64,000 bases of DNA, taken from assembly GCA_000004985.1 (NCBI GenBank), contig GG738929.1. One strand, 5' to 3'. The DNA comes from Naegleria gruberi. Taxonomy: Eukaryota. Made by a program: the position numbers and the translations under genes. Under the pieces are notes generated by a model. That model was given only the letters and a program-made list of their open reading frames with translations, did no database searches and had not been told where the DNA came from. Position 1 is the stretch's first letter; every line of letters begins with the position of its first letter. Shown piece by piece: positions 272 through 58,198 of the stretch.

Positions 272-3200
272 TTATTTTTCCAAGATGGTTTTCACAACAT
301 TTCTAATTTGTGTTTGAGATATTGGTTTTAGACACACAAGATCCATTCCTGCACGTTTGCACAAGCTTTCTCCATCACTATCTCCAGTCGCACCAATTAA
401 AATACAAGAAGTAGCAGGTTTCTTTTCTGCTTCAAATAGTCTTATTTTTTCGGCACATTCCAATCCTGACATTACATCCATGTGTACATCAAGAACAATG
501 GCATCAAATTTGTTAGGGGTATCAAAATTCTCAATATAAGCATCAAGAGCCTCTTTACCATTTGAAACACCCTTAGTTTCAATCATGAGCTTGTGTGGTT
601 CATTCTTGACCTGCGAGAGATGATTTTCTAGCTCACTATTTCCAGTAAGACCACCAAATATCTTGAGCATAATATTCTTATTAATAACATTATCATCAGC
701 TACAAGTATTCTTAATTTAAGTTGTTTCTCTGATGGTCCACTATCAGATGATCCTGAGGGAGACGATTGGGGTGATGTTTCAGATGTTTGCGGATCTTTG
801 GAAATTGCTGGCAAGTTTGGCTCTGAAATTAATGCCTTCTTAGGGAATTGGAATTTTTCAAAATCATTCTTCTCCGTGCTTGAAAAGGAAACAGTGGAAT
901 TCTTCATTGTTAATATTTGTTGAATCATATATTGGAAAGAAAAAAGTGTTACAGGTTTTCTAATTGATAAATCAAACATAGACTTGTTGGATTTAGGAAG
1001 ATTTGTATCCTTTTTGATAAAACTTAGGAATCTTTTAGGTTCAAATCTATCAAACCATACAATTAATTTAGGTTGGATGACTTGATTATTTGTAGCAAAT
1101 TTAGCATTATGTGACTCTATTAATACTTTCAGTTTAGAAATGGTTGAATGAATTCTTTCAATCTCTACTGGAGAATAAATAAGAGTACTATTTCTTCTAC
1201 CAGCATTGTTTGATTGATTTGCAGCCTTAGATTCAGCATTATGGGAGGAAACATGAGCTGCAGTGAAAAGAGCATTCTCGCTCTTTGGTAGATTGTCAGG
1301 AAGGAAACAAGCGTCATCCAAAATAATGAAAGAAATAGGTTTCTTAACTAACCAATCATTAGGATTAGATGATGATCTGTGCAAGAACTCCTCAGTGAAT
1401 TGCTCTATCTTGTCAGCATTTACAAATACGTTTTCAATATTTTCCATTGTTGCAACCTTTTCATCAAACACTTCTCTTAAATAATTGGAGAGGATGTTTC
1501 TCACTTTTGATTCTTTGTAAAGTACGAGACAAATATTGTTGCCATAATTTTTGGAAAGCTTTTCCTTTACCTCCATAATCTTACTTTCATCTGTAAGAGG
1601 TAATCTCTTATCAGCTCTGTCAATAATCTTGTCATAGTCCTCTCCTCTTGCAGCCTTTTGAAAAACAACTGTAAACCAGAAATTACTTCCACTGGAACCA
1701 TTACTCTTACAACCAATGTCACCATTCATGAGGGTTGTAAGGTTTTTACAAATACTGAGACCAAGACCACTTCCTTCATACTCCTTATCCTTTTTCAATC
1801 TTGAAAATACTTTGAAAAGATCTTTTTGTTTTTCTTGAGGAATACCGATACCAGTATCACAAACTACTACAAATACTTTCACTGTGGTTTCAGTTTCTTC
1901 TGGAACATCAACCAAGACAGAAACCGATCCTGTATGAGTAAACTTGATAGCATTACCCATCAAGTTTGTTAGAATTTGTTGGAATTTGTGAACGTCACCT
2001 CTAACAACCAATGGTACTCTATGTTTAGATCCACGTTTTACATCAATTTCAAGTGCTACATCAATTCCCTTCTTAAAGGCAGTAACACTGTTAATAGAAA
2101 TAATTTCTTCAACAGAATATTGTAAATCAAAGTTTGAAACATCAAGCTCAACACTTCCAGATTCTAATTTTGATGATGAAAGAACGTCTTGAATAATATT
2201 ACTCAAAATATGGCAACTGGATAAAATCATATTCATCCATTCTAGACCTTCATGAGAATCTACTGTTTGTTGATGAACAAAGTCTTCATGCATCTTTTGG
2301 GCAATTAAATAAATCGAGTTCAAAGGATTCTTCAAATCGTGAGAAATCATACTAAAGAAAGTTGTTCTACTTTGAAGTTCTATTTGTGCTTCTCTGGCTT
2401 TTTCATTCATTAATTTAACTTGATCATTAAGTTCATTATTTCTGATGATGAACACATCAACTTTCTTAGAACTCAAAAAATCTACTTTGTGTGTGACCTC
2501 TACACCAAATCTATCACCAATCTTGGTTCTTGCCTTACATAGAGTCCACTTATCTGTTGCAATGACTGGAGGTCCAACAAGCAAATCCAAAATATTTTTA
2601 GAAGCATGTATTATTTCATCATGTTCATATCCAAACATTCTTTCAAAAGCAAGATTAACATAGATAATCTTCTTTTTCCTTCTACTCTGTATGATTATTG
2701 CTTCGTTTGTAATGTTTAGCATGTTAGATAATCTTGTTTCAACTTCTCTGATTTGAGACCTAAATGCCTGATGCATATTATTAAGAATGAGAATTGCAAC
2801 TACAAAGGGTATCGATATAAATAATATATCACAAAAGTAATCTCCATAATTTAAAGACAATCCTGGCATTAATGATTCTAACCATCCAAATTGTATGAAG
2901 GCTAGAATATATCCAATAAGAGCAACAATGGCAGTTTTGATGCTCGAAAGTCCAATAGCTGCAAAAATTGTTGGGAAAATTACGAGTCTCATGTTAGAAG
3001 CGAGAATTAGATGATTGTAAAGAGTTGTTTGATTTTGTTCAAAAATTAGAAGTGAAAGGATGGAGTTAGTATCAATGGAAGATGAAGCAAGATTAATTAG
3101 TATGAAAGGAACGGTGAGAAGGTAGAAAAGGAAAACGTAGAGGTAGGCATGTGGGAAGGGTGAACGAAAAAGGATGAATCCAACTAATGAAAATGTAGCA

Positions 3201-3858
3201 TCTAGAATGTACAGCAGTGAAAGTGTTTTAAATCTGATTAGTTGTTGTATGATCACTATAATTTAATAGAAACATTGATGATCATTTATGAATAATTTAT
3301 GAATAGGGTAAATGAATGAATATTCAATAATAAAATTTCGTACATACTTGATATGCTGAAGAAGAGATGGAAAACAAAATACACTGAATAGTAAGCTATT
3401 GATAATCTCTCGTATGGGTCCTTAATGCTATTATGTGCTCGCAAACCAGGGAAGTTTACAAACCTATATCCCATCAGAAATGATGATGATTTACTAAACA
3501 GATGCGAAATAAATCTACGGAAACGGGATCTTGGTTTTGTATCTGGTTCCTCTTCCTCATCATCATCATAATCACGGTCTCTCTCTTCCTGTTGATTATT
3601 TGGTTCGAGAGAAGGCTGAATAGCTATTGTTGTTTGGTTATTCCCCACATCATTTATAACTGTAGAAGGCTCGGATAAGTTTTGTTGTTGTTGTGTATTA
3701 GAAAGAGGTGTTGTTGTTGTTGTTGGTATATTAACTTTGTGTTCAACATTCCTACCAAGTAAATTTGTCGTCGTCGTCGTAGAAGGAGGAGTTGTAGTAA
3801 TAGTTCCTTCCACCACTATCGATGGTGATAACGGTTCGTTATTATTGGTAGAAGGCAT
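272..3858 (-). CDS. Hybrid sensor histidine kinase, two exons: join(3858..3348, 3255..272). It has an N-terminal Ser/Thr/Asn-rich region, multiple TM helices, HisKA, HATPase_c and a C-terminal receiver domain.
   Basis: H-box SHDLKNPLNSI is present. The N box NLMGNAIKFT, G1 DTGIGI and G2 GSGLGLSI are present. The receiver motifs ILVADDNVINKNIMLKIF...DAIVLDVHMDVMSGLE are present. The upstream ORF 3286..3858 is in frame across a 92-nt GTATGT...TTATAG intron (3347..3256). Its last base a plus tg from the next exon re-forms an ATG codon, which is why the track shows a GTG-started second ORF. The real ATG is at 3858. Confidence 0.8.
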
Positions 3859-13760: not shown

Positions 13761-16700
13761 TTATTGAGCTTCAACTTGACCGCCTAAACATTTAATCAAA
13801 TAATCAATCATTGAGAAACTACTCATTTCTTCTACTAGAAGATTTGAATTCAATTCCTTCAATCGATTTGTTGCTTGTTTCAAATGAATAACAGATTCAG
13901 AATATTTGCTTGAATCTTTCTTTCCGCTTTGGAGTGTTTCTTTTGCCCATTGAGAAAGAGGATACATTCCATCATCACTCTTATCATTCTCAGTAACATT
14001 AGAAAGGAAATTGTCAAATGATGTTTCTTCTACTTTACCATAGAGATTAGGATAATTTGTCTTTAAGTGATTTAGTAACTCTTCGTGAGTTGGTGGATTA
14101 GTATTGCAAATGTGAATAATTTCCAAATCAAATAATTTGAATCGAGTGGAATTGACAATGATTTTGCTTACAAAGTCAACATTCACCAAGTTTCTAACAA
14201 TTTCTAAATTTGGAGTACTGTTAGTTCTCTTAATTGATTTTAACATTCTTTCCAATAGAAAACCTTTTGGCATTTCACCTGTTTCATTTCCAATAATTAA
14301 ACCAGGTCTCACAATCAATATTGGTAATCCCAAAATGTCTTTGGCTTGTTTCAACAAACACTCGGATGCAAATTTCGTTTGAGGATATCCGAATGTGAGA
14401 TTCATTTCTGATAGTGTTGAAATCCTCTCTATTGGTTGACCTGAATCCTTATCCAAAGGTGCAGCAGATATTGAACTAACATATAGCAATGGCTTGACCC
14501 TACTCTGAAATGAAAACTCAATCATTCGTCTTGTTCCATCAACATTCGATTCTTTCAAAGATGAAAATGGTTGAATAAAATTCACAACAGAACCACCATG
14601 ATAGACAACATCAACATTCCGAGCCAATTCATCATAGGTTGCTCTGTCCATTCCAAATAAATCCAAGCCAACATCTCCAACAAGTACTTGAACTCTGCTA
14701 ATATATTCATTCTTCCAAAGTGAATACTTTTTCATGTTATCTATTAATCTCTTAGTTGCATGATCAATACTATTACCTCTACAAATACAATAGACCATTT
14801 TCAATTCTTGTAATTCTAATAAATCTCTTAATAGGAAGGCACCCAGAAATCCAGTAGATCCAGTTAAGAGAACTTGTTCATGAATGAGTGGTTGACTGGA
14901 AGAAATACTTTGTGGAAGGGATTCCTTTGATTTTTCCAAATATTTCATTATTTCTTCATTGACAACAGGTGTTAATAATTCAGATTGATTGATTGCCTCA
15001 ATGAGTTTCTTTGGAGTGTTCATCTTGTATACTTCATCAACACTCAGTTGAACATTGAATTCATTCTTGATATAATTTCTTAATTTGATCAATGAAATTG
15101 AATCTAATCCAATATTAGTAAGTGATGTATTCAGTTCAATTGCATTTTCCTCGTTTATAAATATTTGCTTATTCATAAATTCGAGAAATTGTGAAGGTTC
15201 TGCAATTTTAGAAGCTTTCTTACTTGATTGAGGTTTCTTTACCATAATATTTTCATTCTCATTAGCAGAGGATGAAACATTGTAAAGTGAATCAATAATA
15301 TTCTTGAATACTTGTTCAGTTTTAGATCTAGAAACAAGTCCTTTCAAACTACTGGTTGGAATACTATCATTGGTTAGCAATATAAAATCCACAATTCTAG
15401 AATGGAATGGAAGTCTATTATTCATTTCAATAATTTGCTCACTAATCTTTTCCTTAATATTATTAGGTTTCTTTTTAGGATCAATTTCAATCAATGCCAC
15501 ACAGAAAGGTCTATTATGACCAATGACAGCACTTCTAACAACGGATCCATCAAATGAATCAATTTCATTCTCAATTGGTACTGGATTAGTCATTTCACCA
15601 TTAGTATGACAAAGAATATTATCAGATCGGGTATTATAGAAATAGTGATCTTTAGGATACTCAAAAAATAAATCATGAGTACAGAATATACCATCTACCC
15701 AAAACTTTGTATTATTAATGGACATGTAATCCAATGCACATGTTGGGCAACCCTTCTTTAGATTCAATAAATAACACTTTTCCATTTCATAAGGTTGCCA
15801 AACAATGTACTTTTCTGGAATGACACATTTCATTGATTTGAATGCGCCAGTGAACGGATCAGCTGCCATTACAACACCTACCTCACTCATTCCATATCCA
15901 TTTGTTATGTTAATTCTATGATCTTGGCAATAATTGATGAGATGATTTGGAGTAGAAACTCCACCAAGAGCCACAACCAGACATTCAGATAATAGTTTAG
16001 TCTTTTCCTCTGATTCCATTATTTCTTCCAATAAAATTGGAAATACAATGGCTCTAGTGGATGGTAAATGTTCCTTATGGCTCAACAATACCTGACTGAG
16101 TGTTTGAGAAATACTTTGTCTAGTTGTCTGATTAAACATTATATAATTAGTACCCTTGTAGAGACAACCCAACAAGTTATATAATCCCATTAAGTGAAAT
16201 AATGGTAGAAAGTTGATAACATATTGTTGACTTGTCGTTCCAATGGATTGTGAATAGTGAAGACTTGACATTAGTGATCTCATATTGTGAATTACTATTT
16301 TAGGAATATTAGTACTACCTGAAGTGTTCAAATAAAAGCATGGATCTTCAAATTTGAATGGTAATTTCAGTGCTTGTTTCAAATCTTCATCACTGATTGT
16401 AGTATCTAATTGATCTTTGATAGCTGAAATAATGTCGAATGGTTTCAGATAGGAAGAATATTCATGTTTCTCATAATCTTTCAATTGTTGTGAAATGTCT
16501 GATGTGATCATGTATTTATCGGCTGTTTTAAAGAATGTATCCATACTCTCCTTATCACTTGCTTTAATCATTGAATCTAGAATCTGGGGAGATAAACTAA
16601 CATATTTCACATTTCCCAATTCGAGTAGTTTTGAAATAATTCCAGGAGTCAATTTGTTATTGACTGGAAAATTAATACAACCCAAAGTCCATAATGCAAA

Positions 16701-17021
16701 CAGTAATACAGAGTAGACTATTGAGTTTTCATGTAACAAAGCAACGCAAGAACCTTTCTTTAAACTTGGCCATTGCTTCATGATTAATCTTCTGGCCATT
16801 GCAACTGATTTGGAAAATTGACCAAATGTTAAGGTTGATATTTCCAATTTGTAATCTAATGGTAATTCACCATCTGTGATCACTCTTGTGAGGAAAGTTG
16901 ATTGAGAATTGTTCAAACCATAATGTTCTACAAGTTCCAATAAGTTAAAGAATGGTTTCCTATTTAAAGGCCATTCAACTTGAATTCCTTCGTGGTCTAT
17001 AATTTCTGTTGACTGACTCAT
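13761..17021 (-). CDS. NRPS-like carboxylic acid reductase / Lys2-type enzyme: adenylation domain, phosphopantetheine carrier domain, NAD(P)-dependent thioester reductase domain (A-T-R), single exon, 1086 aa
   Basis: The A-domain cores are NTSGSTNIPK (A3) and TNGYGMSEVG (A5). The carrier Ser motif is NIGLDSISLIKL. The reductase Rossmann motif LLTGSTGFLGAFLL is present, together with a downstream YxxxK (YPQTK). The ATG at 17021 is real. Confidence 0.85.
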   Translation of the reverse strand: MSQSTEIIDHEGIQVEWPLNRKPFFNLLELVEHYGLNNSQSTFLTRVITDGELPLDYKLEISTLTFGQFSKSVAMARRLIMKQWPSLKKGSCVALLHENSIVYSVLLFALWTLGCINFPVNNKLTPGIISKLLELGNVKYVSLSPQILDSMIKASDKESMDTFFKTADKYMITSDISQQLKDYEKHEYSSYLKPFDIISAIKDQLDTTISDEDLKQALKLPFKFEDPCFYLNTSGSTNIPKIVIHNMRSLMSSLHYSQSIGTTSQQYVINFLPLFHLMGLYNLLGCLYKGTNYIMFNQTTRQSISQTLSQVLLSHKEHLPSTRAIVFPILLEEIMESEEKTKLLSECLVVALGGVSTPNHLINYCQDHRINITNGYGMSEVGVVMAADPFTGAFKSMKCVIPEKYIVWQPYEMEKCYLLNLKKGCPTCALDYMSINNTKFWVDGIFCTHDLFFEYPKDHYFYNTRSDNILCHTNGEMTNPVPIENEIDSFDGSVVRSAVIGHNRPFCVALIEIDPKKKPNNIKEKISEQIIEMNNRLPFHSRIVDFILLTNDSIPTSSLKGLVSRSKTEQVFKNIIDSLYNVSSSANENENIMVKKPQSSKKASKIAEPSQFLEFMNKQIFINEENAIELNTSLTNIGLDSISLIKLRNYIKNEFNVQLSVDEVYKMNTPKKLIEAINQSELLTPVVNEEIMKYLEKSKESLPQSISSSQPLIHEQVLLTGSTGFLGAFLLRDLLELQELKMVYCICRGNSIDHATKRLIDNMKKYSLWKNEYISRVQVLVGDVGLDLFGMDRATYDELARNVDVVYHGGSVVNFIQPFSSLKESNVDGTRRMIEFSFQSRVKPLLYVSSISAAPLDKDSGQPIERISTLSEMNLTFGYPQTKFASECLLKQAKDILGLPILIVRPGLIIGNETGEMPKGFLLERMLKSIKRTNSTPNLEIVRNLVNVDFVSKIIVNSTRFKLFDLEIIHICNTNPPTHEELLNHLKTNYPNLYGKVEETSFDNFLSNVTENDKSDDGMYPLSQWAKETLQSGKKDSSKYSESVIHLKQATNRLKELNSNLLVEEMSSFSMIDYLIKCLGGQVEAQ

Positions 17022-17215: not shown

Positions 17216-18063
17216 TTAAGGTTCATAGGACATGAGTTCTTCCTTGTCATCTTTTGACATTTTCTCGACAGCATATCTAAGACCTTCTCTACTGAAATGT
17301 GAATAATTTTCCTTAATAAAATCAGTTACCAAATCCAAATCAGCTAAACTCAATTCTCTCAGCACCCATCCAGTTCCAAGTTGTGCAAATCTTTCACTAT
17401 TCTTCACTGTTGTACTACAAATATCAATAATCAAGTCGTTATATTCTCCATGCTTGGCAATCTTTACAAAACTAACACAAGCACTTCGTTGTTTCCACAA
17501 ATTATCGGAATCTTTCCACTTTTGAACAACTTGTGCCAAACTTGAATCTCTTTTAATGAGCTCACAAATTACAGTTGAGCTAATAGTATCACAAGTTGCC
17601 CAATCATAAACATGTTCCTTATCAAATAAATTCTCCTCAATTCCATTCACAACATATAATCCATTGACTCCAATTTCATCATCTTCAGTTGATTTCTTCT
17701 TCTTTTTTGGTACAAAGTTTTTAACATTTGATGCCAATATCTAATTCATTATTATATATTCCAAATTAAATACTCAGTTATCAAATAAAAACCAACCTTG
17801 ATTCCAATAGATTTCTCTTCAAAATATTTACTTGCTATTAATTCATAACTAACATCCACCTGATCCTTCAATTCTGGTATATTTGTTTGTAAATTACTTT
17901 TCAGAGTATCTTTCCAACATTTTTCAACAATCGGAGCCTTCAATCCATGAAATTTAATAACATTCTTCATGTAGCCTTCTTGGTGTTTAGCAGAGTCCTT
18001 GTTGGCTACTTTTAATAGTGTTGTTCGGACGAGTTTTGTAAAATTCATACGTTTGACTTCCAT
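17216..18063 (-). CDS. DNA alkylation repair enzyme family (AlkD/AlkC-like HEAT-repeat glycosylase family) protein, 2 exons: join(18063..17797, 17740..17216)
   Basis: The family call rests on pattern similarity to PF08713-like proteins, for example LKAPIVEK, NLWKQRSACVSF and GWVLRELS. A 56-nt intron (GTTGGT...AATTAG) is in frame. Confidence in the family is moderate; the gene model itself is good. Confidence 0.5.
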
Positions 18064-20446: not shown

Positions 20447-22420
20447 TTAAATGCAATATCTTTTCACAAGGGATGAATCAATTTCAACCTTGAATAATAT
20501 TTTGAAGAGAAAGCTGTGAGTAATTCTTTCATCGTTAACAAAGTGTATTGATGAATGATTACACAACAATGCACTAATGCAGAACATGAAATCTTCCTTA
20601 AGGAATGGAGATGCATCAGAAAATGCATACTCATAGGAGAGTATGGCAGCCTTGACAATGTCAGGATTACTTTTCAATCTTGGAGAGGCAAATTTGAGTG
20701 CCATTCCACTATTCTTACATGCCGTCATGATTACTTCAAAATCATCACACAGTGGAGGGTCTGCATATTGTAATGTGTATGGATAATGTTTCACAGCATG
20801 AAGTAGCAACTCTCTGTCAGTAATTGTACTTGGATATTTGTTGAAAAAGTCGGCACTCTTTTCAACAGATGACCAAATCAATTCCTTGTCGGCTCTTAGA
20901 CTTTCTGGAATGACATCCAGGTGATCGGTTCCATATTTTTTAACAATCATCATAATTAGCTCTCTATCATTTCTAAAGGATGAATCAAGGAACTTGAATA
21001 GGCATGGATTATTCTCCACAATTTCAAAAATTAAATTTCTATCCAATTTCAACTCTGGAGTTAAAAACTTGTAGGCATTTGGTGAATATTTAAGAACCTT
21101 TTTTAGGAAATCCAAGTCCTTGACTAATTCAGGGTTCAGAAACTTTGTTCCTTCATTTGGTTTGTATTTTATGTATGCCAACAATACTTCCTTGTCGTTT
21201 CTGATATGTTTAGGCAATTTCTTATATTCTATAGCATTAAAAACTTGCATGACAACTTCTTTATCATTCCACAAATCCTCAGAGAGTTCATAAATAGAAA
21301 CTTCAAATTCTGGTACCATTTTAAGTATTAATGATCTATTACTGGATATTCTTCTTTCTATTTCATCAAAGACATGTCTTGGGTGCGATGATAAGTGAGC
21401 TCTTATTACTTCTTCATCATCCCACAGTTGATGATCTGTAACTTGGCTTAGAATAAAATCATGATCTGATGAATCTGAAACCCGTAGACAACTCAGCAAA
21501 ATTTCTCTATCATTGAAGCATGATTTTTCTAAATAATAAATAGATGACCCATTTCTGGCTATGAGTGTTTTAGCTACCTGTTTGTAGTGTGGATATTCTA
21601 GTGGAAGACAAGATAAAGATAAGTTTTTTTCCATGGCAACTTGAACTAGTTCATCAAAAAATGGCAGGTCAACTGGAACATATTTAAGATGATTACTATT
21701 TCCAGAGATTGCTTTCAATAAAATATCATAATCCAGGGCATGTTTGGTATTTTTGATATGACCATAAGGATGGTTCTCCAACACGATCAATAACAAATCC
21801 TTTCTTTCACATATCAAATCACTAGGAAGATAAGAAAGTGATATTCCACTCTTCACACACTCCTCAATAATGTCCAAATCTAGTGATTTGTAAACACCTG
21901 CTTTTAAGTAATTCAACTTTCCATGTTGTGCCAATTCCAAAACAATTTCCTTATTATCCTTAATTTCTGGATAAAATATGCCAACATTCAGTCCGTTGGA
22001 CAAACAAGCTGCGATTCTAATATCAATGTCTCTTTTCAATTCATTTGGAAGATAATCGAAAATATAACCATAAACACTGAGAGCTAACAGGGCAATATCC
22101 TTTCTCGTTTTTAAATGTTCGGGTATTTTGGAATAATTGAACCCATCCGATTCAATTGCTAGTTTGACAATTGTTTCATCATTTTTCAATCTTTCAGAAA
22201 TAAATTCAAATCCACTAAAATACTTTTTTGAACATGCCATTAATACAATTTCTCTGTCATCTCTCAATCTTTCAGAACAGAATTGAAACGCCAATGGTGC
22301 ATGTTTAATGGCCAACTCGACCACTTGTCTATCATCTTTCCAATGACTTGGAGCATATTTCAATACGTATGCGTTATGGGATACTAGCAATTTAATGACA
22401 TGTTTGTAGTAATTGACCAT
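20447..22420 (-). CDS. DUF4116-repeat protein (hypothetical)
   Basis: About 30-aa repeats of the form NDREL/NDKEVxLxxVxxNGxxLKFxxxxLxxD occur at least 12 times. The ATG at 22420 is real. The upstream same-strand ORF 22392..22673 overlaps in another frame, so a possible 5-prime extension is unresolved. Confidence 0.6.
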   Translation of the reverse strand: MVNYYKHVIKLLVSHNAYVLKYAPSHWKDDRQVVELAIKHAPLAFQFCSERLRDDREIVLMACSKKYFSGFEFISERLKNDETIVKLAIESDGFNYSKIPEHLKTRKDIALLALSVYGYIFDYLPNELKRDIDIRIAACLSNGLNVGIFYPEIKDNKEIVLELAQHGKLNYLKAGVYKSLDLDIIEECVKSGISLSYLPSDLICERKDLLLIVLENHPYGHIKNTKHALDYDILLKAISGNSNHLKYVPVDLPFFDELVQVAMEKNLSLSCLPLEYPHYKQVAKTLIARNGSSIYYLEKSCFNDREILLSCLRVSDSSDHDFILSQVTDHQLWDDEEVIRAHLSSHPRHVFDEIERRISSNRSLILKMVPEFEVSIYELSEDLWNDKEVVMQVFNAIEYKKLPKHIRNDKEVLLAYIKYKPNEGTKFLNPELVKDLDFLKKVLKYSPNAYKFLTPELKLDRNLIFEIVENNPCLFKFLDSSFRNDRELIMMIVKKYGTDHLDVIPESLRADKELIWSSVEKSADFFNKYPSTITDRELLLHAVKHYPYTLQYADPPLCDDFEVIMTACKNSGMALKFASPRLKSNPDIVKAAILSYEYAFSDASPFLKEDFMFCISALLCNHSSIHFVNDERITHSFLFKILFKVEIDSSLVKRYCI

Positions 22421-44673: not shown

Positions 44674-44723
44674 NNNNNNNNNNNNNNNNNNNNNNNNNNN
44701 NNNNNNNNNNNNNNNNNNNNNNN
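44674..44723. other. Assembly gap (50 N)
   Basis: Run of n characters. Confidence 1.
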
Positions 44724-46552: not shown

Positions 46553-46652
46553 TTCTTTTTTGTTATAGAAAAACCGGTGAAAAAAAGTCAAAAGGGAGGG
46601 TCCTTTTATAATACCCTTATATAAATTAAAAAAAATCAATTTCTAAAATAGT

Positions 46653-49600
46653 TTATTTAATTTCTAATATTCCAAGTTTGAGTTCAATATCTTGTCTTGA
46701 TAAAATACGTGCTTGATGAATAACAGTATATCTATTATTGGATGAAATTGGAATTCCTTGTGAGAGCATGATATCAGTAACTTCAATAACCTTATCAGTT
46801 GCATGTAAAATTGTCAATTCCAAATACTTGTTCATTAAATCTTCAATTGAAAAGATATCTTCATATTGTAATGAATCTTGATTTTCAAATAATGATTCAT
46901 CACTCATTAATTGTTGAAATAATAAACTAGTTTCAAAATAATCTGAAAAATCTCTACAATTATGAGTTAACAAGTATAATGTTAATAAATCTCTTCTTGT
47001 TTCTCTATTTCTCAAATTATAAAAACACCACAATGCAGTAATAAATTGTCTTCTATGACATGTCATTAAAATTCCATTCAAAGTTCCAACATTATCAAGT
47101 GGAATTAGAGATTTTTCAATTAATTGTTTAATTCTATTTTGAGATTTTCCTTTCAAAATAATTAAAGTAATATAATAATAAATTTCATCATTCTTTTCAA
47201 TATTATTTTCCTTATTTGTAATTATATTTAAAATATTATTAACATGATAAGTATCATCATTTGGTAAAGTTATCATTTCTAAACCTTTCAAATAACAAGT
47301 TGTAATTAAAGTTAGAAATTTTTGAACATTTTCATCAACTTTTGAATTTTTCCAATTTAAAACAGAATTAAAAATAGATTTTTGTAATTCTGGATTTTTT
47401 CTTAAATGAATATTTTGTAATTCATTAAATAAATTTAAAACAATATCCAAAGATGGAATTAAATTATAAACTTGATAAATTTCTTTAAATATAGAAACTG
47501 CTTTTGTAAAATAATTTTTATGTTGTAAATAAGATTTAATAATTAATCTAAAAGTTTCCAAATTTGGTTTTACCATATTTTGTTTTAATTGTAAATAAAA
47601 AAATTCAATTTTTTCTAAATTTTTTTCCTTTTCATAAATTTCAATTAAAATATTATAAGCATTAACATTTTTAGGATATAATCTAATTATATTATTACAA
47701 ATTTCAATTGTTTTTTCTATATTTATATTTAAATAATATTGTGCCATTAAATCATAAGTTTCTATATTTGGAAAACTTTCTAAAAATGAAGTCATTTCTT
47801 CAATTAGTAATTTAAATGATTTTGAATTATTTTGATTTAATAAATATAAAAGTAATAAATTACAAATTTCAGTATTTAAAATTATTGAATCATTATAATT
47901 TTCAATAAATTTTTTAATTTCATCTTGTTTTTCAAAAATTAATTGTCCTTTTAAGTAAATTCTTTTTGTATTTGTATTATTTTCTAAATTTGGTAATTTA
48001 ATTAAAACATCTTGATAAAATGAAAATATTTTGTTTACATGTTTTAAATATTTTGATTCATTTAAGTGACTAGTTTCCATTTCTATAATTGTTTCAAATA
48101 TTAAATTAAATAAATTTGTTAAAAATTCAATTTTTTCATTTGTAAAATTTTTTAAATTATTAATTAAAAAATTAAAAATATTTGCTGCTATAAATGGTTT
48201 ATCTAATTTGGTACATAAAATTTCAATTACATTTTTAATAATTTCCTTTTCATTATTTAATTTTTCCAATTCAATAAAATTTAAATTTAAAATTAAATTT
48301 TCAATTAAATTATTTTCATTATTTTCATTTAAATATTTTAATTTAAATTCATTTGCAAATTCCAAATCTTTTTGTGTTGAAGAATTTTGAATTAATTTTT
48401 CATAAATTAAATTTAAAGTTTCATTTTCAATTTTTAAATTTAATTTTTTTAAATTTCCAAAAATTTCTAATGCAACATCTAAATTATTTATATTTTTAAT
48501 TAATTGATTTAAAATTTTACTTTTTTGTTCATTAGTTAAATTTGTTTGATTTTTAAAATTTCTATAAATAAATGATAAATTATTTCCAAATATAGTTGAT
48601 ATATTATTAATTAATCTATTTAAATATTCATTATCATATTCATTAATATTATTTAAATAATTATTAATACAATAATTAAAATAATTTAAAATTAATTGAT
48701 TACTATTTCCATCTTTTAATATATTTGCTTTATATGGTAATATTTCTATTCTTAATTTTGTACAAATTTCAAATAAATTTAATGATGACATGTCATTTGC
48801 CATAAATTTTAAAGCTAATTTAAATGAAATTGTAAAATTTGATTTAATTTTAGAAAATAATTTTCTAATCATTTCAATATTTCCATTTTTATCATAAAAA
48901 GTTAATAATAAAGAAAATTCTTCATCATTTAAATTATCTAAATTTGGTAAAATAAATTCATCAATTAAATTTTCATTTCCATTAAATTCAATTAATTTAA
49001 TTAAAAAAGATTTAAAATTTTTATAATTTTTAAAATTTAAAATTAATTCATTTAAATTTTTAGAATTTAAAATAAATAATTCTTTTGTTTTTTCATTAAT
49101 TAAATTATTATTTGTATTTATAAATTTAAATAATTCATCAACATTTAAATTTTTTTTAATCATATTTTCAATTACTAAATTAATTAAATCAATTTCAAAA
49201 TTATTTTTCTTTTTTAAAAATTTTGAATTTAATAATTCAATTGCTTCATTAATTCCATCATATTTAATTAAAGTTTCAATTGATTTTTTATAAATTTCAT
49301 TTTTTTTATCAATATTTCCAATATTATCAATTATTCTATTTATGGAATTTAATATACTTTTATTATAATCAATTAAATTTATATTATTTTCATTTTTATT
49401 CATTATTAATATTGTATTAAATAATTTTAAATAAATTTCACTTGTTTTATTTGGAATATTATTAAAATATAATAATCCATTTTGTAATGATTCCTTTTTT
49501 AGTATATTTTCTAATTCAATTTCATATGAAAATGTATTTTCATCTTTTTCAATATATTTTAATATTATATTTTGAATATTTTCATAAATTTCATTATAAT

Positions 49601-50153
49601 TTATATTTTCTAATTTATTAATAGGAGTATTAATAGTATTTATTGTATTATTTGAATTAATTGTTATATTTGAATTTATATTTAAATTATTATTGATATT
49701 ATTAGTATTACTGTTATTGAAAGTTGTTGAATAATTTCTAATAGAAAATAATCTTGTTGTTGTTGTTGTTGATAATACTTCGGAAGATGATGTTGATTTA
49801 AAACTAGTTAAAGATTTCTTGTTCAATTGATTATTTAAACAATCATTATGATAATATTGTTGTTGTTGATAATGATGAATTAAACGAACAATAAGATTAC
49901 TAGTAGTATTGTTGTTGTGATACACACGATGATGATTTAATAATTTAGCCTTTTGCATCATTTTTTTCAATTTTTCAAAAAAACATGAAGCATAATTAAA
50001 ATCAAGCCTTGACAAGTAAATGTGCATAATAATACTACTATCAAAAACAGAGTATATTAGTCTTAACATATCATCAACAAATACTTGGAAGAAAAAGTCA
50101 ATTTGATTGAAGCCTTTATCAAAGGCTAAAAATTCATTAAAAAAAATGAACAT
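46653..50153 (-). CDS. Very AT-rich helical-repeat protein, probably PPR/TPR-like (organellar RNA-binding type), about 1100 aa
   Basis: It is a long ORF dominated by N/I/K/L, with recurring 35-aa-like helical units (for example YNILIEIYEKEKNLEKIEFFYLQLKQNMVKPNLETFRLIIKSYL). The start is uncertain: the ATG at 50153 would overlap the NSUN gene start head-to-head, and an internal MM at 49961 is an alternative. Confidence 0.45.
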   Translation of the reverse strand: MFIFFNEFLAFDKGFNQIDFFFQVFVDDMLRLIYSVFDSSIIMHIYLSRLDFNYASCFFEKLKKMMQKAKLLNHHRVYHNNNTTSNLIVRLIHHYQQQQYYHNDCLNNQLNKKSLTSFKSTSSSEVLSTTTTTRLFSIRNYSTTFNNSNTNNINNNLNINSNITINSNNTINTINTPINKLENINYNEIYENIQNIILKYIEKDENTFSYEIELENILKKESLQNGLLYFNNIPNKTSEIYLKLFNTILIMNKNENNINLIDYNKSILNSINRIIDNIGNIDKKNEIYKKSIETLIKYDGINEAIELLNSKFLKKKNNFEIDLINLVIENMIKKNLNVDELFKFINTNNNLINEKTKELFILNSKNLNELILNFKNYKNFKSFLIKLIEFNGNENLIDEFILPNLDNLNDEEFSLLLTFYDKNGNIEMIRKLFSKIKSNFTISFKLALKFMANDMSSLNLFEICTKLRIEILPYKANILKDGNSNQLILNYFNYCINNYLNNINEYDNEYLNRLINNISTIFGNNLSFIYRNFKNQTNLTNEQKSKILNQLIKNINNLDVALEIFGNLKKLNLKIENETLNLIYEKLIQNSSTQKDLEFANEFKLKYLNENNENNLIENLILNLNFIELEKLNNEKEIIKNVIEILCTKLDKPFIAANIFNFLINNLKNFTNEKIEFLTNLFNLIFETIIEMETSHLNESKYLKHVNKIFSFYQDVLIKLPNLENNTNTKRIYLKGQLIFEKQDEIKKFIENYNDSIILNTEICNLLLLYLLNQNNSKSFKLLIEEMTSFLESFPNIETYDLMAQYYLNINIEKTIEICNNIIRLYPKNVNAYNILIEIYEKEKNLEKIEFFYLQLKQNMVKPNLETFRLIIKSYLQHKNYFTKAVSIFKEIYQVYNLIPSLDIVLNLFNELQNIHLRKNPELQKSIFNSVLNWKNSKVDENVQKFLTLITTCYLKGLEMITLPNDDTYHVNNILNIITNKENNIEKNDEIYYYITLIILKGKSQNRIKQLIEKSLIPLDNVGTLNGILMTCHRRQFITALWCFYNLRNRETRRDLLTLYLLTHNCRDFSDYFETSLLFQQLMSDESLFENQDSLQYEDIFSIEDLMNKYLELTILHATDKVIEVTDIMLSQGIPISSNNRYTVIHQARILSRQDIELKLGILEIK

Positions 50154-52022
50154 TTCAACCTTGAAGGCTTTTTCTGTTCGGAGATTAAATCATCACCATC
50201 ATCAATTCTATAATATTATCAATCCATATTCATATCATCAACAACAACAACAACAATTATTTTCAACATGTTTATTTACATTCAATAAGGATAATTTAAA
50301 TGAAAAGATTTTTAAAAATTCTAAAAAGCCTTCTTTCCAACAATCAAAACAAAGACATCATTCTAATAATACAAAACATTCTAATAATAATTCTAATAAT
50401 AATAACAAATCATCATCATATCATATAATAATAAAAAGAATGAAAAATATCCAAAAGAAGAAATTCTTGCAAAATTAGAACAAATTAAACAATTTGAAGA
50501 AAATCTTCAACAAGAATCAACATTAAATAATTTTCCATTTGTAGAAAGACATACTATATCAATATTATATCATTATCATCAAATATTAATTCAACAATCA
50601 AATTATCCATTAGATTTATTTATTTCAAATTATTTAAAAAAAAATAATATTGGAAAAAATAACAAACATTTAATTATTTCTTCATGTTATGAAATTGAAA
50701 AATTATATTTATTATTAGATTATTTAATTAAAAATTATGATTTTAAATTAATTGAATCTAAATTATTAATTTCATTAGATCAATATATAAATAGAATTAA
50801 TCAAATTAAAATTAAACAATTAGGTCCAAATTCAAATTTATTACCAAAATCAGTAACTTTTGTTGAAGAAAATAAGAAAACTGTTTTACATTGGAGATTA
50901 ATTTATTTTATTTATATTGATAGATTTTATACTAAAAATTTTATTAATTCTATAAATGATTTATATTCTCAATTTGGTAATATTCCTAAAAATATATTAA
51001 CTAGTTGTCCTTCTCAATTATTTGATTTATTTAAAGAAGATTATAATTTACAATATGCTATTGAATTATCTCAAATTAATTTAACTGAAGCTCCTGTTTT
51101 TGCTCGTTTAAATGATTTGAAATTTAATTCTCTTTCTAATAATAGTAATATTATTTCTAATAATAATAATAGTAGTAATAATACCAGTAGTAATAATAGT
51201 GAAAATAATGATAATTCTAATTCTTCTAATATTTCTAATAACAATTCAAATGAAAAGATAATATTAAAAAAGTTTATTAATAGATTATCAAATAATTATT
51301 CTGAAATTGTTGGACAAATATTACCAAGTGAAAATTCTAAATTTGGATTTAAATTTGAAAAAAAAGCAGAATTTAGACAATGGAAAGAATATAAAGAAGG
51401 ATTATTTGATATTCAAGATGAATCATCTCAATTAATAGTTCAAGAATTAATTAGAAATATTGTAATGAAAGAAATTAAAACATTAAAACCATTAATTTTA
51501 GATTATTGTTGTGGAACTGGTGGTAAAACATTTGCATTTGCAGGTTGTTTAAATGGAAAGGGACAAATTTATATGCATGATGTACGTTCTGAAAAATTAT
51601 TTCCCGAATTAAAAAGAAGAGCACAAAGATTAGGAATTGAAAATATTCAACCCATTGAACATGATCATTCACATTGGGATAAATTGAAAGATAAAATGAA
51701 TTTAGTATTGTGTGATGTTCCATGTACAGGAACAGGTACTTTGAGAAGAAATGTTGAAACCAAGTACAAGATTAATTATCAATGGTTACAAGAATTAACT
51801 GAAAAACAACGTGATATTATTCAAAAAGCAATTCCATTCGTTAAACAAGATGGTTATTTCCTCTATTCTACATGTTCAATTTTGAAAAAGGAAAATGAAA
51901 AACAATTGGAATGGATTTTGAAAAAGTACAAGAATTTCCAACTCGTTCACACTGTAAAGATTTTACCAACCATTGATGGTTCAGATGGAATGTATGGTGT
52001 TTTATTAAAGAGAATAAATTAA
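50146..52022 (+). CDS. NOL1/NOP2/Sun-family RNA (cytosine-5)-methyltransferase (short NSUN4-like form), with a frame discontinuity near 50400..50480
   Basis: Motif I is LDYCCGTGGKT, motif IV is CDVPCTGTGTLRRN, and motif VI is LYSTCSI. A long open frame runs from about 50406 to 52022. The track lists only its C-terminal 301 codons, from the first ATG at 51117. A separate ORF (ATG 50146, MNISTLKAFSVRRLNHHHH, presequence-like) ends at 50478 in another frame. Confidence 0.55.
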
Positions 52023-52123
52023 TTTATTGATATATTATTAAATGATAACTTGACTTGTTACTTTCAAGTTATTCTTCTAAATATGAAATTCTATGATAAA
52101 TAAAATGAATGAGATGAATGAAA

Positions 52124-54570
52124 TTAATTAGTTCTAACTAATTGTACAGTTGTATCAGTTGTCATCCAAATATTCAATTCTTCAAAATGATTTAAACATC
52201 TTGTAATATCTTCTTGTCTAAAACCAACTAATTCAGATTGTAAACCAGCCATATCAATAATACCATTTGTAGATTGTTGTAATCTATTTCTAATAATATC
52301 ATAAACACCATACATTGGATCAGATCTTCTTTGACTTCTATCACTATCATCTAAAAGTGAAGATCTTGATTCTAAAATTAATCTTTCTGCTTCATTAACA
52401 TCACTAATTTCAATTTTAGATGAAAATCTTAATCTTGCTTTTGATTCAGCAAGTCTATAAATTGATAAAATAGTTCTAGGTGTTGTATACATTTGAATCT
52501 TATCACTCACTTTAGAATTACGTTCATCATTTTGACGCATTGTAATATAAATTTCCTTAATCTTATTAGAGGCTGTATTGGCTCCAAATCCTTCTTGTGC
52601 TGATAAATAAGGTTCAAATGTTTTAGCTCTAGTTACAACTGCTCTAATATATTCAGGTGAAAATAATTTATTCTTCTTCATCTTCTTCATTTGAATTACC
52701 AGTAGTAGTAGTATTATTTGAATTGTTAGTATTTGAATTATTAGATGGTATTTGTGAAAATTGATGTACAAAAGTAATATGTCTTGCTAAATTCATATCC
52801 AATTCATTATTTTGTTTATCCAAAAGTAAAAACATCAAATCAAAACGTGACATTAGAGCAGGTGGTAAATTAATATTTTCAGAAACAGATCTTCTAGTAT
52901 TCCAACGACCATATGCAGGATTAGCAGCAGCTAATACACATGTACGTGCATTTAAAGTAGTTGTAATACCTGCTTTAGCAATTGAAACAGATTGTTGTTC
53001 CATAACTTCATGTAGTGCAGTTCTATCATATTCTTCCATTTTATCAAATTCATCAATACAACAAATACCATTATCTGCTAATACTAATGCACCTCCTTCT
53101 AGAATTAATTCATTTGTAAGTGGATCTTTAATAACAGCTGCAGTTAAACCAACTCCACTTGATCCTTTACCAGTTGTATAAATACCACGTGGTGATATAT
53201 GTGAAATGAAACGTAATAATTGAGATTTTGCAACACCTGGATCACCCATTAAAATTACATTTAAATCTCCTCTAATTTTTAATCCTCTAGTTTCACGTGT
53301 TTGTGCTCCAATTAACATTAATAAAAGTGCTTTTTTAACATTGGCATGTCCATATATTTCAGGTGCTATTGATTTTGATAATTTATCATACCATTGATCA
53401 TGTCCCATCTTTCTAATATCTGAATCAATTTTAATCATTAGTGCTTGTTCTTGTTCACTCAATTCACTTAAATCTGTATATCTTCTCTTATGTTTTAAAA
53501 TTGAATGTGCTTCTAAATAGGTTGTTGCAACAGGTCCTCCTCCTGAATGATGATGATTATTTCTACCACCACCACTATTACCACTACTCACTTGATAAGG
53601 TAAAAATATACCAAAACAAGTAATTGAATCACCAGGTGTACATGTTCTAGTTAATTCACCTCTCATAACAACTCTCATAGTTCTAGGTATATGTCCAGTT
53701 GGTACTTCATCTGACATTTCCTGAATAACTAATTGTTGAAATTTAACAAAACATGATTCTCTTGTTTGTTGTAATAAATTTCCTTTACATTCTTTTTGTA
53801 CACATGTTTCAATTGGAATGAATGATGTTTGATTAATTGTTTGATAAATCATTCCAGAACATGTATCACATTTATAAGTTGCTACTTTCATTTCTGCTTT
53901 AACATCTGTTTGTTTTGTTACAATACCTCTAACTGTTACTAATTTACCAATATGTTTTCCTTTAATTAATCTTAATGGTATTGTACGTTGTTGATGTGTT
54001 TTAGGTTGAAATGTTAATTCATATTTTCTATTCAATTCACTTGGTATTCCATTATTAGAACTATTGGAATTATTATTATTATTGGAATGTTCATGATGAT
54101 CATGATGATTATCATTCATTCATTAAATCATCAAATTCATCATTTTCTAATTGAATTAATTGATCAATAACATTTTCAAATAATTTTTTATATCTCATTC
54201 CATTTTCTTGTATTTTAAACATTAAATCTTTAAAACCTCCAATTTGTAAATCATCAAATTGAATGGGAAATTTAATCTTTTCATCAGAATATTCTAATTG
54301 ATGTAATTTTAATTGATCTATTAACTTTTTATATGGAAAAATCATTTCACTCTCCTGTAATAATTCATTAAATTGTACTGATGTAAATTCTAATAGGAAT
54401 TTTTTAATGGTTTCCTTTTCTCGGATATAATCTGGCATGTGAATTGATGATTTTGTAGTGTTATTATTGTCAAGAGTATTATTATTACTTCCTCCTCTAT
54501 TGTTATTGTTGGAGGCATTACCACCACTACCACCTCTCTGTTGTTGTTGTTGTTGTGAGAGTGATAACAT
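52124..54570 (-). CDS. mcm7: MCM7 replicative helicase subunit, recovered as three ORFs with two frame discontinuities (near 54112..54119 and near 52668..52771)
   Basis: The N-terminus MPDYIREKETIKKFLLEF is present. The zinc-finger/OB segment is KCDTCSGMIYQ. Walker A GDPGVAKSQLL, Walker B CCIDEFDKM and the arginine finger SRFDLMF are present. The C-terminal winged-helix-like tail matches the MCM7 order and length. Confidence 0.8.
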
Positions 54571-54615
54571 TTTTTTTTTAAAAATGTTTTTTCAACTTCA
54601 ACGTTTTGATTTGTT

Positions 54616-54628
54616 TTTTGGCGGGAAA
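54616..54628. promoter_or_regulatory. Consensus E2F site TTTGGCGGGAAA about 45 bp upstream of the MCM7 start
   Basis: There is an exact TTTSGCGC core in an otherwise AT-rich promoter. MCM genes are canonical E2F targets. Confidence 0.5.
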
Positions 54629-54721
54629 TTGAACCATCACATCATTAACAAGACCACAGTTTAAAAAAGATGAAAACGTTTTAAAAATAAATTTATATTT
54701 TTATTATTATTATTATTATAA

Positions 54722-56897
54722 TTATTGATTTGGTACTAGTTCATATTTAATATTTTGTAATAATTTTCTATCATTATAATATTGTATTATATAAATTCCA
54801 AATAAAGCAATACTAACAATGACTAGAAATGAAAATAAAATGATTGATAAAACTAAAAGTGGATCTAATTTTTTACCACTTACAATAGTTTCAACAATTA
54901 AATTATAATTAGATTCAGTATCAACAGTATTTAATACAATTATAGTAAGTGAATGTGTTGAATTTCTATTTAAATTTGAAATTTGTAAAGTTTTTTCATT
55001 AACATCTTCCAAATCATAATAATTAAAAATATTTTTAAAATTATCATTAAAATTATTTGTAATATTTAAAAATGTTTCATTATTTGGTTGTAAATATAAA
55101 TGTAATTTTCCTAATTTGGAAGTTTTAGTTAAAATTAAACGAATATCAAATAAACCAATTGAATTATCAAATGGAATTAATAAATTATATAAATGATAAT
55201 TATTACCAAATATTAAATTATTATTATAAATAGCTTGTTTACCAAATGTAATATCATTTCTAATTATAGAACAATCATTTCCATAATAACCTAATTCACA
55301 TTCACATTTAGAATTAATTAAACATTTACCATGATTTGAACATTGATTTGGACATTTCATTGTATTTGTTTGATAATCAATTTTAAAATCATTACATTCA
55401 ATTGTTGATGTTTCACTTTCCATATTTGTATAATTACAAAATGATTTTTTATATAAAAATCTTGAAATCATTTCAAATGAAGCATATGGTACATCATGTG
55501 GTGATAAATGTCCACTTGAATATAAAATTACTTGTCTTAGATTTTCATATTTTTTAAATATTCCTAAAATTATATTATTATTATTATTAGTATTACCATT
55601 TATATTATTATTATTATTATTAGAAATAGAAGAAGAATAAAAAGGATAATGTGGTTCATAATTAAAATCTTGTTTACCATACCAATTCATTAATCTTAAA
55701 TATTCATTTGTACCATAAACAGAACATCTAATATCAAATTGACCATTTATAATTAAAATTCTATATTTAGATAATAATGGAATTAAATAATTAACATAAT
55801 CAACTTGAAAATCATTTTTAAAATCATTCCATAATTTAGAACTACATTGAGTATATAAATAATCATCCTTATTTAAATTTCCTAATAAAACATTTTTAAC
55901 ACTTTCCATATTTAAATAACTTTCTAATTTTGATAAAATACTATATGTACCAATTAATCTATAATCATAAATATTAATACCACCAGATGATTGTAATAAA
56001 TTATTTAATGCACTTGAACAATAAGTTGAATCTGCTTTTGAATACATTTTTTGTTCTATAAAATCATGACATGTTTTTTGTAATGAATTAATTTGAATTA
56101 AATTTTCATAATCAATTAATCCTACTATATATGATAATAATCCATAACTATTTTCTTGTATATCAGGTGATATCCATGCATTACCCATTATTATACCTTC
56201 TAATTTTATTATAAAATATTATTTTTATATAATTAAAATTAAATATTTTAAAAAAAAAATAAAATACATACTGATTTTGTAAATTTTTTTTATCATCATT
56301 ATATTCACTAATAAATTTAGCAAATGAAATGACATATTTACCACCATATGATTCACCATATAAATAAAGTGGTCTATTTTTAAATTCACTAAATTTAGAA
56401 TAAAAATCTAATAAAGCATTTAATAATTGTTCACCAACTTGAATAGCATTCATTCCATTATTATTATTTACTTCTATATATGGACTATATCCAGCACCAG
56501 TTGGATTATCTATAAATAGAACATTAAAATTTCTAGAATAGGAATTTAAATTATCAGTCAAAGTTTGATTTAAATTAAATTTAATTGGTCCAATTTCTAA
56601 AAAAGTAGAAATTAAACTTGAACAACCAGGTCCACCATTTAAAAATATTAATAATGGATTTGTATTTGTAATTGAATTTCCTTTTTCATCATGTTGATTT
56701 ATTAATAGAAAATATAATTGACCATATTTATTATTTAAAAATCCACTATTACCTTTTAAATTCAAATAATTTGTACCTTTATAGGAAGGTAAAGATGAAA
56801 ATGAAAATTCTTGACTTGAAATACATTTAATATTTGTTATTATTAAATTATTTAATAATATTATTAGTAATAATGTTATTAATTTTATATTTTTCAT
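54722..56897 (-). CDS. Serine carboxypeptidase (peptidase S10) with C-terminal EGF-like module and TM anchor, 2 exons: join(56897..56272, 56189..54722)
   Basis: There is a signal peptide. The S10 motifs are GGPGCSS and GESYGG (catalytic Ser). The His region is YSSGHLSPHDVP. The EGF-like module is CPNQCSNHGKCLINSKCECELGYYGNDC. The C-terminal TM is LLVLSIILFSFLVIVSIALFGIYII. The 82-nt intron (GTATGT...ATTAG) is phase-checked and joins ...KNLQNQ|GIIMGNAWISPD. Confidence 0.85.
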
Positions 56898-57344
56898 ATT
56901 TTGTAATTTGTTGATCGATTATTATTATATTGATATTTGTTTAAAAATGTTATTAAAGTTGATGTAATGATTCGGAATAGATTGTTGTATTGTATTTATT
57001 AAATGATGGTGTTGATGATAAAAATATGTTTAAACTACTATTATATACTACTATCACAATTGTATTAGAATACTACAATAAATAACAATATAGTATTTGA
57101 TAGCGGTGGTGGTGATGATGATTATTGTTATGAAATTTTTTATTGATAAAATTTTTTTATGGTTTGACATTTGATTAGAGACTATGAAAATGTTCGATTC
57201 AGACCATTATCTCTCTTTTTCAATATTTTTAATTATTATTATTTGAATAGAGTTTCTTGTCTATTATATCAATAATATTATGATAATTCCTTCTAATTAA
57301 TAATAATTTAATTATTATTATTCAATTAAAATAATTAAATTAAA

Positions 57345-58145: not shown

Positions 58146-58198
58146 TTTTTTTAACTTGACTTTTTATTAATAATATAATAATACTTTTACATAATGTT

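Follow-up and report, generated by a model that had tools for sequence, protein, structure and literature searches.

A predicted stand-alone carboxylic acid reductase of the NRPS-like type in the heterolobosean amoeba Naegleria gruberi

In a 64,000-nucleotide stretch of contig GG738929.1 from Naegleria gruberi, hereafter the window, we identified a gene that in all probability (roughly 0.8, judging from the sequence) encodes a stand-alone adenylate-forming reductase of the non-ribosomal peptide synthetase (NRPS)-like type, i.e. a carboxylic acid reductase (CAR) in the broad sense, which would act alone and would be specific to the Naegleria and Willaertia lineage. The protein has an adenylation (A), a thiolation or carrier (T) and a reductase (R) domain in that order, with the catalytic motifs intact, and by analogy to other A-T-R enzymes its most likely reaction is the ATP-dependent activation of a carboxylic acid and the reduction of that acid to the aldehyde. 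A preliminary description of the window had proposed a single-exon A-T-R gene of 1086 residues at exactly the position that we find (13761-17021), giving no strand; the gene is on the minus strand. The same description supposed a dictyostelid host and, as dictyostelids do not make lysine by the aminoadipate route, argued for another substrate. Over its whole length the encoded protein matches, with 100% identity, a "predicted protein" of Naegleria gruberi. The host is thus a heterolobosean and not a dictyostelid, and the argument from dictyostelid lysine synthesis is therefore irrelevant.

Results

Domain architecture and catalytic motifs

The gene is an unbroken open reading frame (ORF) of a single exon, with an ATG start and one terminal stop codon; the positions of its domains and motifs are collected in Table 1. 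All three domains scored well over the Pfam gathering cut-offs in the profile search whose failure, according to the preliminary description, would have refuted the assignment: AMP-binding (PF00501) gave 104.1 bits against a cut-off of 29.9 over residues 62-387, AMP-binding_C_3 (PF23562) 64.4 against 20.8 over residues 467-581, PP-binding (PF00550) 42.4 against 20.8 over residues 625-677, and NAD_binding_4 (PF07993) 172.9 against 20.1 over residues 719-955. The thioester reductase model TIGR01746 of NCBIfam passed as well, with 233 bits over residues 716-1058 and a cut-off of 213.35. The GxTGFLG and YxxxK motifs that had been read in the R domain are there to the letter, as GSTGFLG and YPQTK. 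The attachment serine of the carrier domain, Ser641, is also intact and is invariant in the orthologues; it had been placed in an LGxDS context, of which the GxDS core is right and the leading Leu is not, the actual letters being IGLDS. A Pfam search at E<=1 found no condensation domain (PF00668), ketosynthase, thioesterase, docking or other synthase domain in the protein, which is a stand-alone, single-module A-T-R protein with every sequence-level hallmark of the broad A-T-R class.

Between A5 and A7 there is a CxxC pair, KGCPTC (residues 423-428, ~15738-15755 on the minus strand), which is kept in N. gruberi and N. fowleri and reads EDCPVL in Willaertia.

Orthologues and conservation

A word-indexed search that covered 5.8 billion proteins returned an orthologue from N. 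fowleri (FDP41_010104, 1139 aa) with 44% identity and the same domains, and a HMMER search run exhaustively over 1.84 billion cluster representatives, for which a two-species profile served as the query, returned another from Willaertia magna (KAL9642249.1, 1146 aa) with 36% identity from end to end. No further true orthologue was found in any other lineage among these 1.84 billion proteins, and in public data the family appears to be confined to the Naegleria/Willaertia group. The matches ranked 4-11 (300-370 bits; 1582-3049 aa, with one 260-aa fragment) were considered as closer kin and rejected. The two of them that were scanned are bacterial megasynthases of the polyketide synthase (PKS)/NRPS kind with two T-R copies each, and their high scores arose because two T-R copies of ~173 bits (~30% identity) were summed.

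None of the 31 motif and catalytic positions that we checked, the P-loop Asn238 among them, varies between the proteins of N. gruberi, N. fowleri and W. magna. Identity among the three proteins is 32-56% within the A, T and R domains and 8-34% in the linkers, and this pattern of conserved domains and diverged linkers indicates that purifying selection has acted on all three activities.

Tests of family membership

The preliminary description had placed the protein among Lys2, the CARs and the fungal NRPS-like reductases, which is right by domain content and model matches, and the family-level models allow the placement to be narrowed. The Lys2 equivalog TIGR03443 failed with 174.6 bits against a cut-off of 1030.1, aligning only the T-R part (residues 595-1036 to model positions 835-1309) and not recognising the A domain. 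The bacterial CAR equivalog NF041592 also failed (155.7 bits against 1300, the alignment spanning residues 57-933), as did the amino-acid adenylation model TIGR01733 (55.2 bits against 317.4). In the A4 motif, His276 aligns with the His of MenE (LPLFH) and FadD13 (LPMFH), where amino-acid A domains have the Asp that binds the alpha-amino group. Given the failure of the three models, the protein is neither a Lys2 nor a bacterial CAR orthologue, and its A domain does not belong to the type that activates amino acids. The earlier suggestion that an acid other than aminoadipate is reduced is thus borne out, albeit by the Lys2 and amino-acid-adenylation models and by His276. No PF23024 domain, the C-terminal subdomain of the fatty acyl-AMP ligase (FAAL)/DIP2 type, was detected by Pfam, in contrast to the bacterial A-T-R protein P0020, which has one. 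There is also no second R domain of the kind found in ATRR, as the protein has a single NAD_binding_4 stretch (719-955) and ends at residue 1086.

Kinship of the adenylation domain

Among solved structures the A domain matched MenE best (E=2e-8), followed by FadD13, FATP2 and CAR (5.5e-6), while its top match outside the heteroloboseans was a basidiomycete "NRPS-like enzyme". In phmmer comparisons it scored 55-84 bits with a class of fungal A-T-R proteins and no more than 25 bits with every other class in the set. The members of this fungal class come from Neoconidiobolus, Rhizopus, Blakeslea, Zychaea, Spinellus, Suillus and Xylogone and are annotated as "acetyl-CoA synthetase-like" or "NRPS-like enzyme". 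A neighbour-joining (NJ) tree of A domains united the heterolobosean sequences with the fungal family in 200 of 200 bootstraps; the fungi were monophyletic in 163 of 200, and the three amoebae formed the sister of all sampled fungi. Since the heteroloboseans are not nested in any sampled fungal group, the gene is not a recent acquisition from any of the fungal lineages sampled. A hidden Markov model of the family gave 260-449 bits for fungal sequences outside its training set and at most 147 bits for non-members; the three heterolobosean sequences were part of the training alignment, and their own scores are therefore circular. Lys560 and Arg565 are invariant across the heterolobosean and fungal relatives. 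When the family profile was searched against the PDB, the best matches were 4-chlorobenzoate:CoA ligase (125 bits), MenE (121 bits) and FadD13 (99 bits), and no solved structure fell within the family, none attaining half the score of true members. By these comparisons the A domain falls with the non-Lys2 reductases of fungi, as a deep-branching sister lineage.

The reductase domain and its origin

The R domain points elsewhere. Its best match among solved structures is MxaA (4u7w, E=1.6e-46 over residues 716-1014), followed by a type I PKS reductase and by CARs (E=6.6e-34 for 5msc). With phmmer it scored 155-175 bits against terminal reductases of bacterial NRPS and PKS proteins, e.g. a Myxococcus NRPS, and 47-78 bits, about half as much, against the R domains of those same fungal proteins that are closest in the A domain. 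An uncorrected NJ tree kept the heterolobosean and fungal R domains apart, while a Kimura-corrected tree joined them with a bootstrap support of only 12%. Thus, of the phylogeny against Lys2, CAR and ATRR clades that had been suggested earlier, the A-domain part gives a clear grouping with fungal non-Lys2 reductases, and the R-domain part does not. A chimeric origin, where a fungal-type A domain was combined with a bacterial-type R domain, is possible but unproven on these comparisons, and a faster evolution of the fungal R domains would account for the R-domain data equally well. As the R-domain relationship lacks tree support, orthology with the fungal enzymes over the whole protein is unproven.

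Structure model

An AlphaFold2 model was built from an alignment of 20 sequences and used solely for a coarse fold match. Its mean pLDDT is 67; the N-terminal A core is modelled well, and the R domain and residues 317-341 poorly, in the case of the R domain because few of the aligned sequences contain one. In a Foldseek search of the PDB the top match was the A and peptidyl carrier didomain of Segniliparus rugosus CAR (5mss, E=6e-26), followed by NRPS termination modules and aryl-acid ligases. The fold match is consistent with the assignment made from sequence and adds nothing beyond it.

Genomic context

Within ~13 kb on each side of the gene, Pfam recognised ORFs for a hybrid histidine kinase, an RRP7, a DNA-alkylation-repair, an LRR, a DUF4116 and a piggyBac-like transposase protein, and three further ORFs in this interval had no Pfam match. 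The gene has a GC content of 32.2% (25% at third codon positions), equal to that of the flanking DNA. Together, the eukaryotic neighbours, the DUF4116 protein included, the matching GC content and the heterolobosean orthologues establish it as a genuine Naegleria gene. The neighbours of the N. fowleri orthologue differ and include an RGS protein and a histidine kinase that is only 25% identical to the one in N. gruberi. A conserved gene cluster was considered and rejected, since in a tblastn comparison of the two loci this histidine-kinase paralogue is the sole shared neighbour, and the presence of a hybrid kinase near both genes is probably due to chance, the kinases forming a large paralogous family. 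Around the A-T-R gene we see neither a biosynthetic cluster nor conserved synteny. The secondary-metabolism setting that had been proposed for the gene finds no support here, as its neighbours form no cluster and are not conserved in N. fowleri.

Table 1. Positions of the A-T-R gene, its domains and motifs (aa, residues of the 1086-aa protein), and of other features of the window
Feature	Position	Strand	Basis
Complete A-T-R adenylate-forming reductase ORF, stop codon included	13761..17021	minus	ORF reading
Adenylation domain, N-terminal core, aa 62-460	15642..16838	minus	Pfam PF00501 and motifs
A3, TSGSTNIPK (233-241)	16299-16325	minus	direct motif reading
A4, LPLFH276, codon of His276	16194-16196	minus	motif reading
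A5, GYGMSE (375-380)	15882-15899	minus	motif reading
A7, T448-H-D450, codon of Asp450	15672-15674	minus	motif reading
Adenylation domain, C-terminal subdomain, aa 467-581	15279..15623	minus	Pfam PF23562
A8 hinge, R465-S-D467, straddling the boundary of the C-terminal subdomain	15621-15629	minus	motif reading
A8 tail, NGEMTNPVPIE	in the aa 467-581 subdomain	minus	motif reading
A10, S-L-K560-GLVSR565, codon of Lys560	15342-15344	minus	motif reading
Carrier (thiolation) domain, aa 625-677	14991..15149	minus	Pfam PF00550
Phosphopantetheine attachment Ser641, IGLDS context	15099-15101	minus	motif reading
Terminal thioester reductase domain, aa 716-1058	13848..14876	minus	TIGR01746 and PF07993
Rossmann motif, G721-STGFLG727	14841-14861	minus	motif reading
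Reductase Arg748	14778-14780	minus	motif reading
Catalytic Y879-PQT-K883	14373-14387	minus	motif reading
Hybrid histidine kinase, 994 aa (PAS, HisKA, HATPase_c, receiver)	272-3256	minus	Pfam
DNA-alkylation-repair gene (PF08713), directly upstream of the A-T-R gene	17216-18063	minus	Pfam
DUF4116-repeat protein, 657 aa, six matched stretches	20447-22420	minus	E=7e-92
PiggyBac-type DDE transposase (PF13843), 657 aa	24534-26507	plus	E=1.6e-33
ORF of 1166 aa, weak PPR match below the threshold	46653-50153	minus	ORF scan
Assembly gap, N run of 50 bp	44674-44723
Assembly gap, N run of 4768 bp	58256-63023

Other features of the window

Two ORFs (17752-18063 and 17216-17737) appear to make up the DNA-alkylation-repair gene, with a frameshift or a short intron as the probable cause of the split. 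The piggyBac-type ORF, ~7.5 kb from the A-T-R gene, is possibly an intact or a domesticated transposase. The GC content of the window is ~32% up to ~46.5 kb and then falls to 14-22% over 46650-58250, where the ORFs are rich in Asn, Ile and Lys and include an RsmB/F methyltransferase, an MCM protein and an S10 carboxypeptidase. The switch in GC falls in a spacer of ~100 bp between two convergent ORFs and not at an assembly gap, and the AT-rich part may be either an island of natural origin or the product of a mis-join. This far end probably accounts for the earlier guess at a dictyostelid. ORFs called across 58199-63062 were rejected as artefacts of the N run.

Discussion

Proposed mechanism and substrate

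Based on the established chemistry of A-T-R enzymes, the following cycle can be envisioned. A phosphopantetheinyl transferase (PPTase) encoded elsewhere would convert the carrier domain to its holo form at Ser641, whereupon the A domain would bind ATP and a free carboxylic acid and form the acyl-AMP, presumably with the P-loop (233-241), Glu380, Asp450, Arg465/Asp467 and the catalytic Lys560. The C-terminal subdomain would then rotate and the acyl group would be moved to the phosphopantetheine thiol, after which the carrier would bring the thioester to the reductase domain, which is of the short-chain dehydrogenase/reductase type (GSTGFLG, Arg748, Tyr879 and Lys883). There the acyl group would be released as the aldehyde at the expense of NAD(P)H, probably NADPH, and a second reduction to the alcohol may follow.

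The substrate is most likely an aromatic or other hydrophobic carboxylic acid that lacks an alpha-amino group. That the acid would be a non-amino one is indicated by His276 in A4 and by the failure of TIGR01733, while the preference for an aromatic or hydrophobic one is suggested by the nearest solved relatives, which are aryl-acid ligases, and by the nearest family, which is labelled as aryl-acid reductases. Roughly, we would put aryl and aryl-aliphatic acids at ~45%, aliphatic and fatty acids at ~30% and others at ~25%. The preliminary description held that the substrate is not predictable from sequence alone, and this holds. It had also proposed to extract the specificity code by alignment to GrsA-PheA, and here the motif-anchored positions could be mapped (PheA 235, 236, 322, 330, 331 and 517 presumably corresponding to His276, Leu277, Gly375, Val383, Val384 and Lys560), with no substrate prediction coming from them. 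As the Stachelhaus code is non-predictive for a domain of the acyl-CoA-ligase type, it was dropped in favour of a mapping on 4-chlorobenzoate ligase. The residues that line up with the pocket of that ligase in the alignment of the family profile, which we take to be Tyr256, His276, Ile325, Gly353, Gly375, Gly377, Val381 and Gly382, would make an uncharged, Gly-rich pocket, and this hints at a non-amino aromatic or hydrophobic acid.

Points against the proposed function

Several findings weigh against a functional carboxylic acid reductase and need to be set beside the evidence above. The A domain is very divergent, with 104 bits in Pfam where the scanned bacterial relatives have 230-490, and its top match outside the heteroloboseans reaches merely E=1.2e-9 at 25% identity. 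In the P-loop, Asn238 stands where the consensus has Gly, and the Lys of the "GEK" in A8 of the fungal relatives is replaced by Met477 here and by Leu in Willaertia. Given the low Pfam score, Asn238 and Met477, the competence of the domain for adenylation is an assumption. MxaA, the top match of the R domain, is a four-electron reductase, and an aldehyde and an alcohol product cannot be distinguished by sequence. The moderate quality of the AlphaFold2 model makes the pocket mapping weak. A six-frame scan of the window for the motif W/FxxKExxxK detected no PPTase gene, which the preliminary description had suggested looking for, and a literature search returned nothing for Naegleria on a CAR, on an aminoadipate reductase or on the locus tag of N. 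fowleri.

Alternative explanations

The nearest competitor to an aldehyde-forming enzyme uses the same A-T-R machinery for two successive reductions, so that a primary (fatty or aryl) alcohol would be made, perhaps from long aliphatic acids in wax or ether-lipid metabolism. We regard this as the less favoured reading and still one of some weight, since MxaA is the top relative of the R domain with a structure, the top NCBIfam matches of the A domain are long-chain-fatty-acid CoA ligase models (NF004837, 85.6 bits), FadD13 and FATP2 are among its top PDB matches, and PF23562 is also the C-terminal subdomain of proteins that are annotated either as ACSBG or as long-chain acyl-CoA synthetases. 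Those A-domain scores are, however, far under the family cut-offs, the family profile is nearer to the aryl-acid ligases than to FadD13 (125 against 99 bits), the FAAL-type PF23024 of the bacterial P0020 is missing here, and two- and four-electron chemistry look alike in sequence. One paper reports FAALs in two Naegleria species and in its text does not name the proteins. It seems improbable that a larger, trans-acting PKS/NRPS pathway employs the protein for loading or for chain release, in which case the T-R pair would free a polyketide or peptidyl intermediate made elsewhere. The R domain does score about twice as high with bacterial megasynthase reductases as with the fungal ones, but the protein is devoid of condensation, ketosynthase and docking domains, the ORFs scanned in the window include no PKS or NRPS gene, no conserved partner gene lies beside the N. 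fowleri orthologue, and the best corrected-distance tree of R domains places the heteroloboseans with the fungi, if only at 12% bootstrap.

Still less credence can be given to the two remaining explanations. A low A-domain score, the odd Asn238 and an annotation that says merely "predicted protein" could be taken as signs of a decayed, non-catalytic relic, or of bacterial or fungal contamination of the assembly, yet a relic is hard to reconcile with an ORF unbroken across 3.26 kb and with catalytic residues, Asn238 among them, that are invariant in three orthologues whose linkers have diverged. Contamination is countered by the GC content shared with the flanks, by orthologues on contigs of 612 kb (N. 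fowleri) and 606 kb (W. magna) among eukaryotic genes, and by the position of the heteroloboseans outside every sampled fungal group in the A-domain tree. The least credible alternative of all is a Lys2-type alpha-aminoadipate reductase serving an aminoadipate lysine pathway in Naegleria. The Euglenozoa, which are kin of the Heterolobosea within Discoba, use the aminoadipate route to lysine; the A-T-R layout is the same, the T-R part aligns to TIGR03443 at E=1.9e-51, and the taxon-based exclusion is void now that the organism is no dictyostelid. Nevertheless, TIGR03443 misses its cut-off widely and passes over the A domain, the amino-acid A-domain model reaches only 55 of 317 bits with His and not Asp in A4, the protein has 1086 residues against the 1390 positions of the Lys2 model, and the nearest A domains are those of fungal non-Lys2 reductases. 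A literature search on lysine and diaminopimelate in Naegleria gave nothing useful. On balance, the most likely interpretation is that of a stand-alone reductase of a non-amino carboxylic acid.

Significance

Carboxylate reductases of the A-T-R kind are familiar from bacteria and fungi, as biocatalysts and as enzymes of primary and secondary metabolism, and our literature search found no description of one in the Heterolobosea. The sequences presented here show a deep-branching relative of the fungal family, with its catalytic residues intact, in N. gruberi, in Willaertia magna and in the pathogenic N. fowleri. The enzyme is of an ordinary type and its lineage is unusual; it leaves the understanding of the mechanism unchanged and is worth noting for the unexpected lineage, for its conservation in a pathogen and for the unusually divergent A domain. 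If the enzyme is active, it would represent a step of these amoebae, so far unrecognised, that forms an aldehyde or an alcohol, and would extend the CAR toolbox by a very divergent A domain. A bolder and rather doubtful scenario is that of an ancient, separate reductase lineage that would either stand as sister to the fungal family in its entirety or be chimeric, with an A domain of the fungal type joined to a T-R unit of the bacterial NRPS type, and that would make a novel aldehyde metabolite in Naegleria and Willaertia, including the brain pathogen N. fowleri. To our knowledge, humans have no A-T-R enzyme, and if this scenario were true the protein would therefore be a pathogen-specific target, and heteroloboseans would own a specialised carboxylate-reducing metabolism.

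Comparison with known systems

With Lys2, or L-aminoadipate-semialdehyde dehydrogenase, the Naegleria protein shares the A-T-R architecture and a related T-R region, and it differs in having an A domain of the acyl/aryl-CoA-ligase type and a TIGR03443 score of about one sixth of the cut-off. The bacterial CARs (EC 1.2.1.30; Nocardia iowensis, 5msc; Segniliparus rugosus, 5mss/5msp) resemble it in architecture, in presumed mechanism and in providing the top structural match; with NF041592 failed and an A-domain similarity of only E=5.5e-6, it is not their orthologue. ATRR, the glycine-betaine reductase of fungi and nematodes, is an A-T-R1-R2 enzyme that is reported to reduce a non-amino-acid carboxylate (bioRxiv 10.1101/559534; PMC11050029). 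The NRPS-like A-T-R core is common to both, while the Naegleria protein carries one reductase domain in place of R1-R2. MxaA and the terminal reductases of bacterial NRPS and PKS proteins are similar in that the Naegleria R domain passes TIGR01746 and has the TGxxGxxG motif, YxxxK and the Arg that follows beta-2; unlike them, it belongs to an A-T-R protein that stands alone and has an A domain like those of fungi, and it does not sit at the end of a multimodular synthase.

The closest comparison is with the fungal NRPS-like reductases. None of their placeable members has a proven substrate; a survey of fungal CARs lists several clades without known substrates (PMC9605436), and the Mucoromycota members of the group are labelled as Type II/III, probably Type III aryl-acid, reductases (PMC8070225). 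The heteroloboseans are set apart by an A-domain identity of only 23-26%, by their branching outside the sampled fungi, by an R-domain match of just 47-78 bits, and by the replacement of Gly by Asn in A3 and of Lys by Met or Leu in A8. What the two groups have in common is the A-T-R order, a similar length (1014-1159 aa), an A domain made of PF00501 and PF23562, and the signatures GR.DD.L...NGEKTNP.P.E and T.KG...R.

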